From sequence record MK327932.1: DNA of 64,000 nucleotides, one strand, 5' to 3'. The first letter of the stretch is position 1, and every line of letters begins with the position of its first letter. Below the pieces are notes generated by a model that saw only the letters and a list, made by a program, of their open reading frames with translations, searched no databases and was not told the origin of the DNA. This stretch comes from Escherichia phage vB_EcoM_G2248. A program made the translations under genes and the position numbers. Positions 42,564 through 49,037 of this stretch are shown piece after piece.

Positions 42564-42938
42564 TTAAAAATCTTCTTCCGGTTTATATCGACCGTCATCA
42601 ACTGGTTTTGGACTGAATCCGGTATGTTTGCGCGGCTTCGCTTCCGGTTTCCCCGCAATCATCAAACCAAAACATTTCATCCCCTTATAACACATAACAA
42701 TATCAACCACGGTCCACGTTATAGGCCATACGATTGCAGCAATACAAAATGCTCCTGTATCGACCTCTTTGGTGTCCTTATCGAATCTGGCATACAAGCA
42801 GAATACTAGATACGAGATCATTGCACCAGTAAGCCAGATATAAAGCACATTAACAATATCTTGTGTTGTCACGTTATCCTCCTTACATGTCTTGCAGTGC
42901 ATAAAAGCATTTTTCTTCATAGTCATAGAAAATGTCAA
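42564..42938 (-). CDS. hypothetical membrane protein
   Basis: two hydrophobic segments; true start probably internal. Confidence 0.4.
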   Translation of the reverse strand: MTFSMTMKKNAFMHCKTCKEDNVTTQDIVNVLYIWLTGAMISYLVFCLYARFDKDTKEVDTGAFCIAAIVWPITWTVVDIVMCYKGMKCFGLMIAGKPEAKPRKHTGFSPKPVDDGRYKPEEDF

Positions 42939-43161
42939 AGTATGCTTTTTCTACATACTCACCATTGATCCAAGCGGCAGTAACAATCAGAGTGGTCCAG
43001 TTCGATCCACTCTCAACGGTAAAGGTTTTAATACCCAGCTTCGCTGCCAAGTCGAACGCAAACCGGACGCAACCACGGCAGGAAGTGATATTTGAAGTTT
43101 TGATTTTAAAGCCACCGCGAGTTTTGGTAATTTCTACTTTAGCGAAAGACAGGTTGCTCAT
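42883..43161 (-). CDS. hypothetical protein (small-protein family 2)
   Basis: 92-aa ORF; GGAGAATCAAAATG start; promoter at 43204-43232. Confidence 0.5.
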   Translation of the reverse strand: MSNLSFAKVEITKTRGGFKIKTSNITSCRGCVRFAFDLAAKLGIKTFTVESGSNWTTLIVTAAWINGEYVEKAYFDIFYDYEEKCFYALQDM

Positions 43162-43203
43162 TTTGATTCTCCTTAAGAAAGTGTGTTTCGTTTTGATGTG
43201 TGT

Positions 43204-43232
43204 AGTATAGGGGATACGTGATCCCCTGTCAA
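43204..43232 (-). promoter_or_regulatory. early promoter cassette with spacer palindrome
   Basis: TTGACA-GGGGATCACGTATCCCC-TATACT then CATCAAAACGAAACAC leader. Confidence 0.55.
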
Positions 43233-43240
43233 CAACTTTT

Positions 43241-43570
43241 TTATGATTTTAGTGAATTAACCACTACATCAAAATGATGTACAGAGTACACCTTATTAAA
43301 CACATATTCATCGTGTTTAGGAATAGCCCCTAATCGCTCTATTTCGCTCGCTGACACGATAAACCGTTTATCCGGTGCATTTACCTTATATGCTTCAACA
43401 ACGCACGGAAAACGCGTTTTAGCGAGTTCGGGATAGTTTTCTGACTCCATCAGGACAATGAATACCCTGTTACATTGATTGTAGAATCCTGTTTTTGATT
43501 TCATCAAGTTTTCTTCTATGTTCAAGTCGTGCAATCTTCTTTTCATGATTTCGTTGGTTCTTGTCTTCAC
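43241..43570 (-). CDS. hypothetical protein (family 2-like)
   Basis: track start is GTG and overlaps upstream gene; true start uncertain. Confidence 0.35.
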   Translation of the reverse strand: MKTRTNEIMKRRLHDLNIEENLMKSKTGFYNQCNRVFIVLMESENYPELAKTRFPCVVEAYKVNAPDKRFIVSASEIERLGAIPKHDEYVFNKVYSVHHFDVVVNSLKS

Positions 43571-43811
43571 AGTTTACCCACTCAACAAGATCTTTACCTA
43601 ACTCGAAAGCCCATTCTCGGTCTTGCTTTACGTTTTGTAGGTATGGACTTTCTGACACTCTACGAAGTGATGTTGTCGTAACAAGAATGATCCCAGGAAT
43701 GGTCGGATGTTCCTTTCCATATACAATCGGACGGGAATCACTTTCGACACCTTGTAAGAAGGTGTATCCTGAATCATTCAGCAACAAATACATTTTCGGT
43801 TCGTTCATCAC
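43470..43811 (-). CDS. hypothetical protein (family 2-like)
   Basis: 113 aa; N-terminus similar to ORF at 43808. Confidence 0.45.
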   Translation of the reverse strand: MMNEPKMYLLLNDSGYTFLQGVESDSRPIVYGKEHPTIPGIILVTTTSLRRVSESPYLQNVKQDREWAFELGKDLVEWVNCEDKNQRNHEKKIARLEHRRKLDEIKNRILQSM

Positions 43812-44065
43812 AGATTCCTCAACCAGTTATTAAAGCGAGCAAAGCATGATTCTTTTCGTGCTTTTTCTGCTTTACGGGCAAATCTATCCAAGAAACACCA
43901 TTCATAATCATCATTGTAAATTCCCTCAAAGGAAGCTCCAGCTTTGCGTAATTCTTTGGTTGTTACCAAGAAACTATCATAGAAGGGAGTTCCTCTAACA
44001 ATGACCGGAAGTTTAACACCTTTCAAGAAAGAATAATCGGCATCATTAATAATTTCAATTTTCAT
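43808..44065 (-). CDS. hypothetical protein (family 2-like)
   Basis: 85 aa; IINDADYSFLKGV...FLVTTKELRK parallels LLNDSGYTFLQGV...ILVTTTSLRR in neighbour. Confidence 0.45.
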   Translation of the reverse strand: MKIEIINDADYSFLKGVKLPVIVRGTPFYDSFLVTTKELRKAGASFEGIYNDDYEWCFLDRFARKAEKARKESCFARFNNWLRNL

Positions 44066-44310
44066 TTTACATTATCTCCATAGATCTTTCCAGCAATATC
44101 AATTTCACCAGCACGAACATCTAGGATAAGATGCGGTAGGTGTATGCAGTTTTCCCACCCTACGCGCTTCATTTCTTCTACGGTAACGTAAGCCCACCCG
44201 TTAGCTGTAATAAAGTCTACTTCAACCTTGAGAGGAAAGCAAGACTTTTCTATGTCTCCGAATCCGACAATATGTTTTGTTGTTGAATATGGAATATATC
44301 CTGTGATCAT
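44062..44310 (-). CDS. hypothetical protein (family 2-like)
   Basis: 82-aa ORF. Confidence 0.45.
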   Translation of the reverse strand: MITGYIPYSTTKHIVGFGDIEKSCFPLKVEVDFITANGWAYVTVEEMKRVGWENCIHLPHLILDVRAGEIDIAGKIYGDNVK

Positions 44311-44768
44311 TTTGTGATCTCCTTATACTCAACACACCATAAGCGTGTAGCCCATGATAAACGCTCATAACGCTGGCAGAAATCGGACCATAGATATTGT
44401 GTACCGTCTTGCATAGTTGAAATATGCGTTTTCTCGCCTACTTTCACGAAAGATGTATTTGACTTCGTGATCTCGACCGGAGTATATCCGAAAGCGGGTT
44501 CCAAGTCAACATCTGAACTAAATGCCAATTTAACAGAATTTGTTTTTCTGACCGCTGTCCGGTTTCCTTCTGGGTACAGCACAGCAGGTTTAGAGCCTAA
44601 GCGGATAAACTCAGTATTTTTAATGAACAGAATATCATGATAACCGTCATATTCCGACACTTCCATAGTAACAGGAAAATCGATATGTGCTAAACCTGGT
44701 AGATCTCGCATATCATGAAATGTAGCCATCAACTTTTTCATTCTATATTCCTCACTCTTCTGTTTCAT
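44307..44768 (-). CDS. hypothetical protein (family 2-like N-terminus)
   Basis: 153-aa ORF; start probably internal. Confidence 0.45.
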   Translation of the reverse strand: MKQKSEEYRMKKLMATFHDMRDLPGLAHIDFPVTMEVSEYDGYHDILFIKNTEFIRLGSKPAVLYPEGNRTAVRKTNSVKLAFSSDVDLEPAFGYTPVEITKSNTSFVKVGEKTHISTMQDGTQYLWSDFCQRYERLSWATRLWCVEYKEITK

Positions 44769-44988
44769 TTCTTTTATATGGTACTATAACAGGATTAATA
44801 CAGCAAGCACCAATTACGTTATGAGCACCACAATTTAAGCATTTATAATCATGGAACTTATTAAGGAATCGCCCGAACTCATAACCGACTAACGCCGCGT
44901 GTACTTGAGTATCGATCTCATCCATATCAGCCAATGTTTTAACCTTCATAATATAATCCTCAAATACTGGTTTTGCGAAGATGGTCAT
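44752..44988 (-). CDS. hypothetical Cys-rich protein
   Basis: 78-aa ORF; CLNCGAHNVIGACC. Confidence 0.4.
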   Translation of the reverse strand: MTIFAKPVFEDYIMKVKTLADMDEIDTQVHAALVGYEFGRFLNKFHDYKCLNCGAHNVIGACCINPVIVPYKRNETEE

Positions 44989-45250
44989 TACATGCTTTTA
45001 ATGCATCAGTCGAGGTGTCATAGCGAGTATTATCATAGCACCAATAACCATCTGTCAACTGATAAATTAATCCATCCTTTTTAGCGTCGATGAAAGACAA
45101 TTCTTTGAAAGTTTCTACTTTCTTTGCTGATACTCCACGGTCACGGCGTTTATAGAGTTTAGCTAAAACGCGTTCAGCTTGTTCCTCTTTATCGCCAGAC
45201 AGATCCCAGATGACGTTTCTGATATGCTTGATTAATTGTTCAGTGGTCAT
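44960..45250 (-). CDS. hypothetical protein
   Basis: 96-aa ORF; GGAGAATCAAATATG start; promoter at 45281-45308. Confidence 0.5.
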   Translation of the reverse strand: MTTEQLIKHIRNVIWDLSGDKEEQAERVLAKLYKRRDRGVSAKKVETFKELSFIDAKKDGLIYQLTDGYWCYDNTRYDTSTDALKACNDHLRKTSI

Positions 45251-45280
45251 ATTTGATTCTCCTTAGTTGGTATGGTTATC

Positions 45281-45308
45281 ATTATACGGGGATTTCTCCC
45301 CGTGTCAA
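45281..45308 (-). promoter_or_regulatory. early promoter cassette with spacer palindrome
   Basis: TTGACA-CGGGGAGAAATCCCCG-TATAAT. Confidence 0.55.
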
Positions 45309-45311
45309 CAA

Positions 45312-45533
45312 TTAAATGATCTCTGCTTCACCGTTAAGGAAGAAAGACCATGTTTTGTTAGGATAACGAAGCGCCCATGATTCAGCAGTTTTAACACCAG
45401 CTTCGAACAATTGACGGCTGGTTACTTTAGCCATACCATCTTCGATGGCAACGTTTTCAATAATCATCGGGTACTTAGCGCCACGCATGAAACCGAAGCC
45501 AGTGGAAGATTTGATAATTTTAACAGTTGCCAT
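45312..45533 (-). CDS. hypothetical protein (family 2-like)
   Basis: track ORF overlaps promoter 45573-45601; ATG with GGAGAATCAAAAATG gives MATVKIIK... Confidence 0.5.
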   Translation of the reverse strand: MATVKIIKSSTGFGFMRGAKYPMIIENVAIEDGMAKVTSRQLFEAGVKTAESWALRYPNKTWSFFLNGEAEII

Positions 45534-45572
45534 TTTTGATTCTCCTAGAAAGTGTCGTGTTTCGATGGGTGT

Positions 45573-45601
45573 ATTATGCAATAACACCGGATCGCTGTCA
45601 A
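45573..45601 (-). promoter_or_regulatory. early promoter
   Basis: TTGACA-N17-CATAAT then ACACCCATCGAAACACGAC leader and GGAGAATCAAAAATG. Confidence 0.55.
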
Positions 45602-45619
45602 CACTTTCTAAGAAAAATT

Positions 45620-45904: not shown

Positions 45905-46251
45905 GCCAGACCTCGCAAAACACTAATAGCATAATCATGCTGGTTATTCATAATATCAATTGCATTGTGATAACGAGCTAAACCATCAAGGATAAATTCT
46001 TGTTTATCCTGTTTCAGTTTTGTATCACGCGCAGCCATAAGAGCATCAAGAACAGGTCCAAAGTGATTATCTAATTCATCTTCGGTTGCAATGTTTCCTA
46101 TTGCCTCGTCGATCCGTGATTCTAATGCTTGCTTTTCGTTGATCACTTGCTGGGTATATTCCAACACATCAAGAATATCGCGGGTAACGTCGCCATGATA
46201 AGGTATTCCCGCATGAAAATGATCAATTAATCGCTGAATATCAATGTTCAT
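45901..46251 (-). CDS. hypothetical protein
   Basis: 116-aa ORF. Confidence 0.45.
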   Translation of the reverse strand: MNIDIQRLIDHFHAGIPYHGDVTRDILDVLEYTQQVINEKQALESRIDEAIGNIATEDELDNHFGPVLDALMAARDTKLKQDKQEFILDGLARYHNAIDIMNNQHDYAISVLRGLA

Positions 46252-46586
46252 TTGTAACCCTCCTCTGAAAGCACATCCCAGATCGTTGCGTCAAGATGCA
46301 TTAAATTCCACATAATAGAGTCATAACTACCGAAGCCAGAAGTAAAAATTACATCACACTGGCGATATGTCTTATGAAAATCGGTGGCTGTCTCTGCATC
46401 AATCGGCATATCGTCACCGGAAAGCACCAGACATTTAAGAATCATAACTCTGTTAGCCGTTGGCGCTTGCTTAGTCTTTTCAGCATATTTTTCGATGATC
46501 CGTTTTGCCTTTTCTTCTTTGATACGTCCAGACCAAATCCGGTTTCGGTATTGATTCATAATAATTTCAATCACATCATTTTGCAT
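46248..46586 (-). CDS. hypothetical protein
   Basis: 112-aa ORF. Confidence 0.45.
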   Translation of the reverse strand: MQNDVIEIIMNQYRNRIWSGRIKEEKAKRIIEKYAEKTKQAPTANRVMILKCLVLSGDDMPIDAETATDFHKTYRQCDVIFTSGFGSYDSIMWNLMHLDATIWDVLSEEGYK

Positions 46587-46892: not shown

Positions 46893-49037
46893 TTATTCAC
46901 GTCCATTTGTATAGTAGTGTTTGAATCGACCGTAACCAGTTTCAATGGTCATTGTTCTTTGGTGAACAATAGCCCAATAACCGTTACAGGAATCTTGCAG
47001 ATACAAATCTTTACCTTTCATAAACTCATTAAAGATTGTTTTCTGCCAGTCATAATAGACAGAATCTTCAATCTTATCCATCCAACCGTGTGGGTCTTCA
47101 AGCAGTTCAACAAGTTCATCGATAACCCAATACGGACACGGACTAAATCGACCTTTACTAAATTCGTTGAACACAGTAACGGTTTTAGCTTCCGGTCTAG
47201 GTTCATCAGGTTCTTCCGGTCGACGATTAACCACAACCTGAACATATTTTGTATAACCGATAATTTCCCCAGAGTCCAACTCATCGTTATTGTTCTGGTC
47301 AGCAAAAGCAACGAATCTATAGACTCCAGAGTCACCTATAGTAGCATTAACTTTTGTGTATATCGGTGTTTTGGGATCGATAATCGGCAACCGAACACCA
47401 TTTTTACTAAACTCATACGTTGGAACGTATGTAGAAGGAGGATTTAATGTCGTTGCTTCTAATGTCAAAGTATCCCCTTCCATAATCTGTACAGGATGAG
47501 GTCCGTCAAATTCCATATTAGGAACAACTTCAACATTATAGGTTGCACGCCCTGCAATATCATAATCATGATGCGCACTATATGGGTCTACACTAGGACT
47601 ATCTCTATATTCATGCGCCCAAATGCCATTATGTTCACGATCCGCAGAGTCAGTAATTTTATACTCTTTAGCCTCAATTGGTAGTTCGGTCACAAAAACA
47701 TCATTTTTTGTTATAACCAAAGAACGAGTTTGAGTAAAATCGCTACTTGCGGGTGGCTCTGGATCGACGATCTTAATAACAATAGGTTCACCAACCTCAA
47801 TATTTCGATAATCGTATTCTTTGTCATAAATGTCAAGCATACGACGGTCGTAAAATAATGGCCTTCCTTTATTGAGGTCATATGCACCATCTTGATTAGA
47901 AGGGGCAACTAGTAATTGTAAAGCAACGCTATTATCATACTGCAAGTCCGATAAAGTAATTCGGTCATAACCTTCATCGCCATATTTTTTGCTTTGTAGA
48001 GTTTTACCACCCAACATCCACGTAAAATAAACATTATTATTAATCAAACTATAATGTCGATTCCACGTATTATCGGATGTTACTAATGGCATATCTAGAT
48101 TGACGGTGGACCCAGAAGGATAACGAAATTCAACGGAATTAAAATCACGATCAAAAAATTCATTGTCTTTGATTGTTACCGTGAATCTATGACGATCACC
48201 ATCAATATATGCTGTCCCTTCTCTGGTTTCACTTGCGGCCTTATATGCACGAACCAAAGCAACATAAACACCCGCATCGGTTTCTTGAGCATGTTTCGTT
48301 ACAAACAGAGTCCTGTCTGTAGATTCATAAATTAAGCTACCATCTTCTCTTTCCAGACGATAACGGACAACGGTATATTCATCATTGGCGGGAGAATCGT
48401 CTGTCACCGTAAAATAGACAGGAGCATATTTCTGTGCGTTAAAAATTTCCGCGCTTTCCTGAATGGTGGCCTCAAACGGATAAACAAATTTCACGTCACC
48501 CGCTTCATCGCTAAGTTCCATTCTATATGTGCCAGAAAATTCAGGCCATGCAAATTTTGCAATTTTAAATTCACGATGGTCTAAACCAAGATCCCCGTCA
48601 ATAGTATCAACAAGACCGTCATTATAATAAAGGTCGATAGAAATGTTTTCTGGGATATGAATACGAAAAACAATTTTAGCCTTTATTTCGTCACCAACCA
48701 CAAAGGAAGTTGGAGGATATACATATTCAACATACTGATTATCAAATAATTCAAATGTGAAATTTTCCGTGCCGATATCAACGGATTCACCAGCAAAATC
48801 ATTATCATCTTGGGCATAGCCACGAACATTAACAGACCATCCTGTTTTATCGCTTTCTTTCACAGATTTTAATTCAAAAGACGGTGTATCGGTTGTAGCA
48901 ACAACCACCCCACCTTTTTTCCAAACATAACCTTTTTTCGGTTTAGTTGGATCATCTGATTCGGCAGCAATTGAGCACGCGAACGTATGAGGAAGCCAAA
49001 TGGTTGTGTTAATGCTAGTATCTTTTACTTCTGGCAT
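46893..49037 (-). CDS. large beta-rich protein, function unknown
   Basis: 714 aa; strong SD GGGGGAA; repetitive beta-strand-like segments and distinct C-terminal domain; followed by terminator 46856-46883. Confidence 0.55.
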   Translation of the reverse strand: MPEVKDTSINTTIWLPHTFACSIAAESDDPTKPKKGYVWKKGGVVVATTDTPSFELKSVKESDKTGWSVNVRGYAQDDNDFAGESVDIGTENFTFELFDNQYVEYVYPPTSFVVGDEIKAKIVFRIHIPENISIDLYYNDGLVDTIDGDLGLDHREFKIAKFAWPEFSGTYRMELSDEAGDVKFVYPFEATIQESAEIFNAQKYAPVYFTVTDDSPANDEYTVVRYRLEREDGSLIYESTDRTLFVTKHAQETDAGVYVALVRAYKAASETREGTAYIDGDRHRFTVTIKDNEFFDRDFNSVEFRYPSGSTVNLDMPLVTSDNTWNRHYSLINNNVYFTWMLGGKTLQSKKYGDEGYDRITLSDLQYDNSVALQLLVAPSNQDGAYDLNKGRPLFYDRRMLDIYDKEYDYRNIEVGEPIVIKIVDPEPPASSDFTQTRSLVITKNDVFVTELPIEAKEYKITDSADREHNGIWAHEYRDSPSVDPYSAHHDYDIAGRATYNVEVVPNMEFDGPHPVQIMEGDTLTLEATTLNPPSTYVPTYEFSKNGVRLPIIDPKTPIYTKVNATIGDSGVYRFVAFADQNNNDELDSGEIIGYTKYVQVVVNRRPEEPDEPRPEAKTVTVFNEFSKGRFSPCPYWVIDELVELLEDPHGWMDKIEDSVYYDWQKTIFNEFMKGKDLYLQDSCNGYWAIVHQRTMTIETGYGRFKHYYTNGRE

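Follow-up and report, generated by a model that had tools for sequence, protein, structure and literature searches.

Escherichia phage vB_EcoM_G2248 carries an array of small minus-strand genes, here lettered A to I (Table 1), in a 64,000-nucleotide stretch of its sequence record (MK327932.1) that is hereafter called the window. Profile comparisons show that six of these genes (B, C, D, E, the N-terminal half of F, and I) are diverged copies of one phage-restricted domain of ~60-70 residues. The six occupy a stretch of ~2.3 kb in a genome of ~164 kb; B, C, D, E and F are contiguous in one transcription unit and gene I is separate from them. Family hidden Markov models (HMMs) detected no further members elsewhere in the window or in the 60-164 kb interval of phage RB49. 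On sequence grounds, the window is from a Krischvirus, an RB49/JSE/phi1-like T4-type coliphage: the 3.5 kb around the array match 58 phage records at 90-99% identity, all of them Krischvirus, with vB_EcoM_G37-3 the closest (99.1%). The array region in JSE and RB49 lies between nrdC/dam and rI/tk, which agrees with its placement in the nrdC-tk hyperplastic region in a first-pass annotation of this DNA, and all of its genes there are annotated as "hypothetical protein".

Six genes share one small domain

Amino acid identity among the copies is 12-30%. The first-pass annotation proposed that open reading frames (ORFs) starting at 43241, 43470, 43808, 44062, 44307 and 45312, and perhaps also 42883, share N-terminal segments. 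The named minus-strand ORFs contain all of the peptide segments quoted in that proposal, and the similarity is real, but the shared part is the whole ~65-residue domain and not N-terminal segments only. One line of evidence comes from proteins outside the array. When a profile of the six was run against 1.84 billion representative proteins, 39 matches at E<1e-3 were obtained; removal of window-gene orthologues and two repeat-rich likely false positives (P0013 and P0038) left a coherent family of 65-75 residues, which also includes two-domain tandem forms (~140 residues) and one three-domain form (531 residues). An HMM built from 37 external domains alone matched exactly six window segments, namely D (6e-17), B (1.8e-11), C (1.9e-8), I (4e-7), E (6e-7) and F (1.4e-6), with the next segment at E 1.2. 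Membership of gene F is confined to its N-terminal ~75 residues, where the match covers approximately residues 16-58. A broader profile recovers the same six segments. The profile alignment suggested as a check in the first-pass annotation therefore provides significant statistical support for the six ORFs. The seventh candidate, ORF 42883-43161 (gene A), is rejected: neither the external HMM nor the broader profile matches it, and its hhalign probability (0.4%) is equivalent to that of gene H used as a negative control (0.5%).

A second line of evidence comes from the PHROG profiles, whose results are independent of seeding from the window. Genes D and I are matched by phrog_7345 (2.4e-22 and 2.7e-33, respectively) and by phrog_13367 (2e-5 and 1.3e-4). 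Among 38,880 PHROG profiles, phrog_13367 is also the second-best match of B (0.025), E (0.12) and F (0.09), and the three alignments share a register that spans the FP...ELxRxG stretch. Because a single pre-specified profile is in question, the per-profile probabilities for B, E and F are ~1e-6. No PHROG cross-match was found for gene C among the same profiles. Related profiles (15322, 13854, 9595, 20482 and 5009) share the ~65-75-residue length and motifs of phrog_13367 and phrog_7345, and external homologues match several of these PHROGs at once, whereas B, C, E and F are placed in separate genus-specific families (17411, 16316, 15979 and 16117). Domain 2 of the tandem protein P0009 matches phrog_17411, the family of gene B itself, at 7.6e-5. 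In leave-one-out tests with full-length HMMs, the omitted member was the best non-training match for B, C, D, E and I.

Some results weaken this case. Most pairwise phmmer comparisons among 643 six-frame window segments are non-significant: C-D (7e-4) and D-I (1e-3) alone reach significance and the links of B, E and F are weak, so that pairwise comparison as sole proof is insufficient for these three. The leave-one-out HMMs failed to recover F, and the match to I was non-significant. The six window proteins served as seeds for the external profile, which is thus partly dependent on them, and the PHROG matches of B, E and F are individually marginal. Searches with gene I alone reached only close relatives; a word-indexed search returned near-identical proteins only and tblastn returned Krischvirus only.

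The family consensus is MKIKLLNDGGYxGLxGVxFPVxVEA...V(T/S)xxELxRxGA...W.F...ExEVIE, with core motifs (F/Y/L)P at the start of strand 2, an E-L-x-R-x-G helix and W/Y-x-F in strand 4. The strand-2 proline is invariant in all six proteins and in 28 aligned members. All six have the E-L-x-R-x-G helix motif; B, C, D and I also have W/Y-x-F, of which E and F carry a degenerate form. In the predicted fold, strand 1 is followed by a long conserved NDGGY loop, a hairpin of strands 2 and 3, a short helix, and strands 4 and 5. The fold comparison is based on AlphaFold2 models of two members, I and D, which have the same topology. The gene I model, from a six-sequence alignment, has a predicted local distance difference test score (pLDDT) of 87.5; its first strand (residues 2-6) leads through a long loop to two strands (23-31 and 34-38), two helices (39-44 and 50-56) and two final strands (61-65 and 70-72). 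The gene D model, from 102 sequences, has a pLDDT of 86 with a core above 90; its strand order and first helix are as in I, with a loop in place of the second helix of I and an additional C-terminal helix. Searching BFVD with the I model retrieved RB49 Q76ZG7 (p074) and proteins from Sf20 (85 residues) and Ec_Makalu_003 (84 residues; template modelling (TM) score 0.62, probability 0.93), the latter two being assigned as D and E orthologues from their length. Uncharacterised proteins of Citrobacter, Cronobacter, Vibrio and T1-like phages were also retrieved, with overall TM scores of 0.6-0.77.

Curated resources do not recognise the domain. Pfam scans gave no match, whether with the six array proteins, with ten external members or with the whole set of 102 aligned members. 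NCBIfam also gave no match, a PDB sequence-profile search found no relative, and neither the six proteins nor three external members matched a PADLOC defence profile at E up to 0.1. Imm33 (PF09951) was considered and rejected; it is matched by C alone, at 12.7 bits against a cut-off of 25.4 and over 14 residues, and it is absent from the listing of the 102-member scan.

Gene layout, selection and predicted promoters

The array genes are annotated in JSE, RB49 and Makalu, and the array is present in at least 57 of the 58 Krischvirus records. Comparison with JSE, RB49 and Makalu gives ratios of nonsynonymous to synonymous substitution rates (dN/dS) of 0.04-0.41 (B 0.22-0.26; C 0.15-0.41; E 0.08-0.27; I 0.04-0.17). 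These sequence comparisons show the array genes to be real and under purifying selection. Gene starts were taken from the annotation in relatives, which makes three genes shorter than their longest ORFs (43241, 87 residues; 44307, 144 residues; 45312, 73 residues).

Table 1. Features of the array and its surroundings. Promoters are predicted; positions are those of the window unless a contig is named.
Feature	Position	Strand	Description
Gene A	42883-43161	minus	92 residues; non-member
Gene B	43241-43504	minus	87 residues; RB49p071 orthologue; diverged family member
Gene C	43470-43808	minus	112 residues; RB49p072; family domain at ~residues 6-72 plus basic helical tail
Gene D	43808-44065	minus	85 residues; RB49p073; nearest to family consensus; C-terminal helix at residues 66-83
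Gene E	44062-44310	minus	82 residues; RB49p075; diverged; first strand and NDGGY loop degenerate
Gene F	44307-44741	minus	144 residues; RB49p076; family domain plus unrelated module
Gene F, N-terminal half	44517-44741	minus	~residues 1-75; diverged family domain
Gene F, C-terminal module	44307-44516	minus	~residues 76-144; not related to the family; fused
Gene G	44752-44949	minus	65 residues; non-member within operon
Gene H	44960-45250	minus	96 residues
Gene I	45312-45533	minus	73 residues; RB49p080; complete single-domain member in its own promoter-flanked cassette
Promoter, H to B unit	45281-45308	minus	sigma-70 consensus; TTGACA, 16-nt spacer, TATAAT; scan 12/12
Promoter, gene I	45573-45601	minus	sigma-70-type; TTGACA, 17-nt spacer, CATAAT; scan 11/12; upstream of gene I
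Promoter, gene A	43232	minus	sigma-70-type; consensus scan
Inverted repeat	45540-45555 / 45601-45616		16 nt
H/I intergenic	45251-45311		61-bp promoter-bearing spacer
Leader/start motif	43153-43173, 45243-45263, 45526-45546, 46777-46797		genes A, H, I, M
Gene L	46248-46586	minus	paired with H
714-residue ORF	46893-49037	minus	Hoc-like match at residues 478-698
phrog_10407 module, window	44307-44516
phrog_10407 module, L002	3260-3478
phrog_10407 module, L011	2630-2887
phrog_10407 module, L009	2007-2225
phrog_10407 module, L016	811-993

The array is shown by a consensus scan to lie behind predicted sigma-70-type promoters of early type. One of these heads the unit H-G-F-E-D-C-B, and its spacer holds a GC stem-loop (CGGGGA-GAAA-TCCCCG); a second lies upstream of gene I and is bracketed by a 16-nt inverted repeat; a third precedes gene A. 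The stem-loop promoter of the H to B unit resembles the promoter/stem-loop (PeSL) cassettes of phi1 and RB49, for which early promoter and terminator activity has been demonstrated (PMC2839356). A conserved leader/start motif with the coding-strand sequence AGGAGAATCAAA[A/T]ATG is repeated at each gene that directly follows an early promoter (A, H, I and M) and corresponds to direct-repeat families D2 and D4.

Good Shine-Dalgarno sites precede C, D, E, F and I. The start of B overlaps the end of C by 35 nt (43470-43504) in the +1 frame, and candidate routes for its translation here are coupling, re-initiation or, remotely, frameshifting. A programmed C to B frameshift was set aside, since entry into B would need a +1 shift, for which no recognisable site is present, and an AAA-AAC run shifts the opposite way.

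Several neighbouring features were also observed. Gene G encodes a small Cys-rich protein (CLNCG...GACCINP) whose CxxC...CC pattern is kept in a homologue on a distantly related contig (L016) and which may be a zinc ribbon. Genes H and L form an apparent second paralogue pair that is unrelated to the array family; they match each other through their N-terminal parts (IRNVIWDLSGDKEEQAERVLAKLYKR vs YRNRIWSGRIKEEKAKRIIEKYAEK) with reciprocal phmmer E values of 0.004-0.007 in the window, and they fall in separate PHROGs (14129 and 1451). The position of the spacer between H and I is occupied in RB49, JSE, Makalu_001 and PHB13 by a gp38-like tail-fibre adhesin gene (~780 bp), and many further relatives, judged by hit annotations, also have a gp38-like gene there; tblastn of the whole 64 kb with JSE gp38 gave no match. 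Further along, a 714-residue ORF is found where JSE and RB49 have just a ~330-bp gap before rI.-1. Part of it matches the Hoc-like head-decoration family phrog_1149 (4e-11), and the ORF resembles a large Ig-like repeat protein inserted into the hyperplastic region.

Variation within the genus and spread beyond it

Copies of the domain appear to have been gained, lost, fused and remodelled among Krischvirus relatives, as judged by the comparative genomics that the first-pass annotation called for. Copy number within the genus ranges from 5 to 7. RB49 has a seventh copy, RB49p074, a canonical 65-residue member that lies beside D and is 55% identical to it; D and p074 occur together in 30 of the 58 records, and p074 is absent from the window. 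The C-terminal module of F matches phrog_10407 (1.8e-26, residues 89-142) and is a stand-alone gene of 60-85 residues in Makalu_001, PHB13, G37-3 and L016. In G37-3, which is 99% identical, the N-terminal family domain of F has been deleted and the C-terminal module alone is left. The distant relative L016, a 2.1-kb metagenomic contig, has the order G-like, F C-terminal module, D-like, C-like, B-like, with the C-like and B-like domains joined in one 156-residue ORF (P0010, 1256-1726). The phrog_10407 module is also duplicated as a stand-alone gene beside F in some Krischviruses, and it adjoins or is fused to a family-domain gene in all examined loci except PHB13, where there is a 63-nt gap. 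Such proximity suggests that the module and the family domain are functionally linked.

Gene D differs from the other copies in its variability. The allele class found in the window (at least 80% amino acid identity) occurs in 5 of 58 records and the other 53 are at most 60.5% identical, in contrast to gene I, which is 95-99% identical in 54 of 57 Krischvirus records. The two D classes are 55% identical in amino acid sequence and differ by a dN of 0.28-0.32 and a dS of 0.37-0.49 (dN/dS 0.56-0.86), compared to dN of 0.005-0.044 for neighbouring genes. The identity trough (62-68%) is limited to 43740-44067, with flanks ~95% identical. Substitutions lie mostly in predicted loops and the core motifs are retained, while mosaic alleles (P0084 and P0089) combine features of D and p074. 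From these comparisons, D is the hypervariable locus of the array, and its fast divergence hints at a role in dealing with the host.

Judged by sequence searches, the domain is a widespread phage and prophage family that is not confined to the window phage. A second database search yielded 119 clusters (at 90% identity), all annotated "hypothetical"; many are on phage-sized contigs of 40-50 kb and others on Morganella, Providencia and Pantoea chromosomes. Further members were found by tblastn in Moonvirus, Aeromonas phages phiA005 and MQM1, Klebsiella phage XY3 and Salmonella phage KM16. In phage Moon, the member lies between gene 32 and frd, which is a variable region, while every neighbour in the Klebsiella and Aeromonas phages is hypothetical and these contexts are uninformative. 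Family profile search of the 32-frd and nrdC-tk regions of T4 found no member, and Frd.3 was rejected as one.

In Morganella lambdoid prophages, the member occurs in the early-left operon, with the order N ... RecT-YqaJ - small ORFs - member - NinX-like - Dam/DUF5405 - xis - int. This position, between recombination genes and xis-int, is equivalent to that of the lambda exo-xis region genes (PMC3824215, PMC8614690), and both are small non-essential early genes. The likeness does not extend to sequence: no homology was found to orf60a, orf61, orf63, ea8.5 or ea22, and family HMMs detected no member in lambda 27.5-35.5 kb (PL/exo-xis; best E 0.36). A member lies next to or near a P22 NinX-like gene (PF10765) in two unrelated contexts from temperate or 46-kb phages (L005-L007, 6206-6535; L015, 7583-7885), which may represent a recurrent association.

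Origin and possible function

We suggest that old tandem duplication in place was the main source of the array, with remodelling afterwards. The repeated duplication of a small domain envisaged in the first-pass annotation fits six members (seven in RB49) within ~2.3 kb, five of them contiguous, and the adjacent RB49p073/RB49p074 pair. No DNA-level repeats were found between copies in the window, which, with the low identity among the proteins, suggests that the duplications are old. Remodelling would have included addition of C-terminal helices (C and D), fusion of an unrelated module (F), and fusion or splitting of two neighbouring domains (C and B here, one ORF elsewhere), with copies gained and lost within the genus. 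Gene D and its tandem twin RB49p074 would recombine or convert, which would give the two deep D allele classes. We regard the homology and these evolutionary steps as highly probable.

The main competing account is that copies were acquired independently from a wider phage pool by modular shuffling, through recombination at promoter/stem-loop cassettes, and were not duplicated within the lineage. The wide spread of the family in unrelated phages and prophages makes horizontal acquisition of some copies possible, especially of gene I, which is a single-gene cassette flanked by early-type promoters. The presence or absence of p074 among close relatives is also consistent with acquisition, as is the finding that D and p074 are nearer to external consensus members than they are to B, E or F. 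Shuffling through PeSLs has been described for this genus (Arbiol et al. 2010, PMC2839356), where ORFan cassettes in the same type of region carry strong sigma-70-type promoters and a stem-loop by small genes of unknown function and likewise vary in gene presence between close relatives. Gene I has a promoter and stem-loop border on both sides, as judged from the scan and from reading the sequence, but B to F individually do not. That study covers the shuffling mechanism without mention of paralogue families, whereas most copies here are internal to one operon. Confinement of all copies to 2.3 kb, with five contiguous and no promoters between them, argues against independent acquisition, as do the lack of a copy elsewhere in the ~164 kb covered by the window and RB49 60-164 kb, the lack of close relatives of B, E and F beyond Krischvirus-like phages, and the retention of the order D, C, B in the distant L016. 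With 12-30% identity over ~60 aligned positions, sequence phylogeny is unable to separate in-place duplication from repeated acquisition, which weighs against the duplication account; overall, we consider independent acquisition rather unlikely.

With respect to function, the members would be non-essential, early-expressed accessory proteins, and each copy may be a small stand-alone binding module for a host macromolecule, used in host takeover or counter-defence. Binding would be through a surface made up of the conserved loop and helix face, and different paralogues or alleles would serve different targets or target variants. This suggestion draws on the early-type promoters, location in non-essential variable regions of lytic and temperate phages, the small, acidic, stand-alone character of the domain, copy-number variation, and the fast-evolving dimorphic copy. 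Early expression is itself suggested by the consensus promoters and by the PeSL literature for the genus (PMC2839356). External single-domain members are acidic (median isoelectric point 4.5, net charge -6) and the Krischvirus copies are neutral to basic. We offer a host-directed binding role in takeover or counter-defence as a tentative inference from this context; taken together, the evolutionary and functional account is moderately favoured.

A number of observations count against this account. Foldseek found no significant PDB structural neighbour of the I and D models (best E 0.19, TM 0.3-0.48), so that the term "binding module" derives from fold class and context only. All matching PHROGs are annotated "unknown function", a literature search found no paper that mentions these PHROGs or the locus tags, and the searches returned no characterised homologue. 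The high dN/dS of D could reflect relaxed constraint or paralogue gene conversion instead of positive selection. Gene B has a weak ribosome-binding site, with a purine-rich stretch only.

A different possibility is that the domain is a nucleic-acid-binding small barrel, similar to Sm/LSM, Tudor/PWWP or ribosomal L21e proteins, that would regulate phage or host RNA or DNA. For both models, every weak PDB match is to an SH3-like small barrel (SH3, Agenet/Tudor, PWWP, chromo, LSM, L21e and NdhS/PsaE), the sole kind of solved structure returned, and the likeness consists of five short strands with a long first loop. Many such barrels bind nucleic acids (L21e, PWWP with single-stranded DNA, LSM and the HIV integrase C-terminal domain), the C-terminal helices of C and D are basic, and the window paralogues are neutral to basic. 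Apart from the lack of a significant structural match, the family differs from these barrels in having a helical insertion between strands 3 and 4, and no sequence relationship was found. The strong acidity of external members argues against nucleic-acid binding by the ancestral domain, and no RNA- or DNA-binding Pfam match occurs among the 102 members. A nucleic-acid-binding role is a weaker alternative to a host-directed binding protein, and we consider it improbable. Chance or compositional similarity, or decay of the ORFs as non-functional duplicates, would fit the many non-significant pairwise comparisons and the failed leave-one-out tests, but is refuted, and is highly improbable, given profile evidence with a clean gap to noise, independent PHROG cross-matches, matching predicted folds, dN/dS well below 1 and the near-universal presence of the array in Krischvirus.

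Returning to the favoured account of an old, remodelled duplication array with host-directed members, a bolder extension can be made. The array could be an unrecognised family of counter-defence or host-takeover effectors in which one scaffold has diversified, each copy neutralising a different host factor, with the same scaffold serving temperate phages from an early accessory region. Gene D, with its tandem twin p074, would then be the copy now in an arms race, a reading that draws on the two ancient allele classes, near-neutral dN/dS and loop-concentrated changes. We consider this extension speculative and unlikely as it stands.

A paralogue family of small genes in a hyperplastic region is unsurprising in itself. 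What is new here is that five families, each genus-specific and of unknown function, are joined as one domain family. They are also linked to 119 or more protein clusters (at 90% identity), which occur in T4-type, podo- and sipho-like phages as well as on chromosomes of Morganella, Providencia and Pantoea, with prophage context shown for Morganella. The array is also a small experimental target: it spans 2.3 kb, is predicted to be non-essential, and has natural variants in which single copies are lost or added as well as two swappable D alleles. It is, therefore, a convenient place to ask what roles the many small early genes in the hyperplastic regions of T4-like phages may have.

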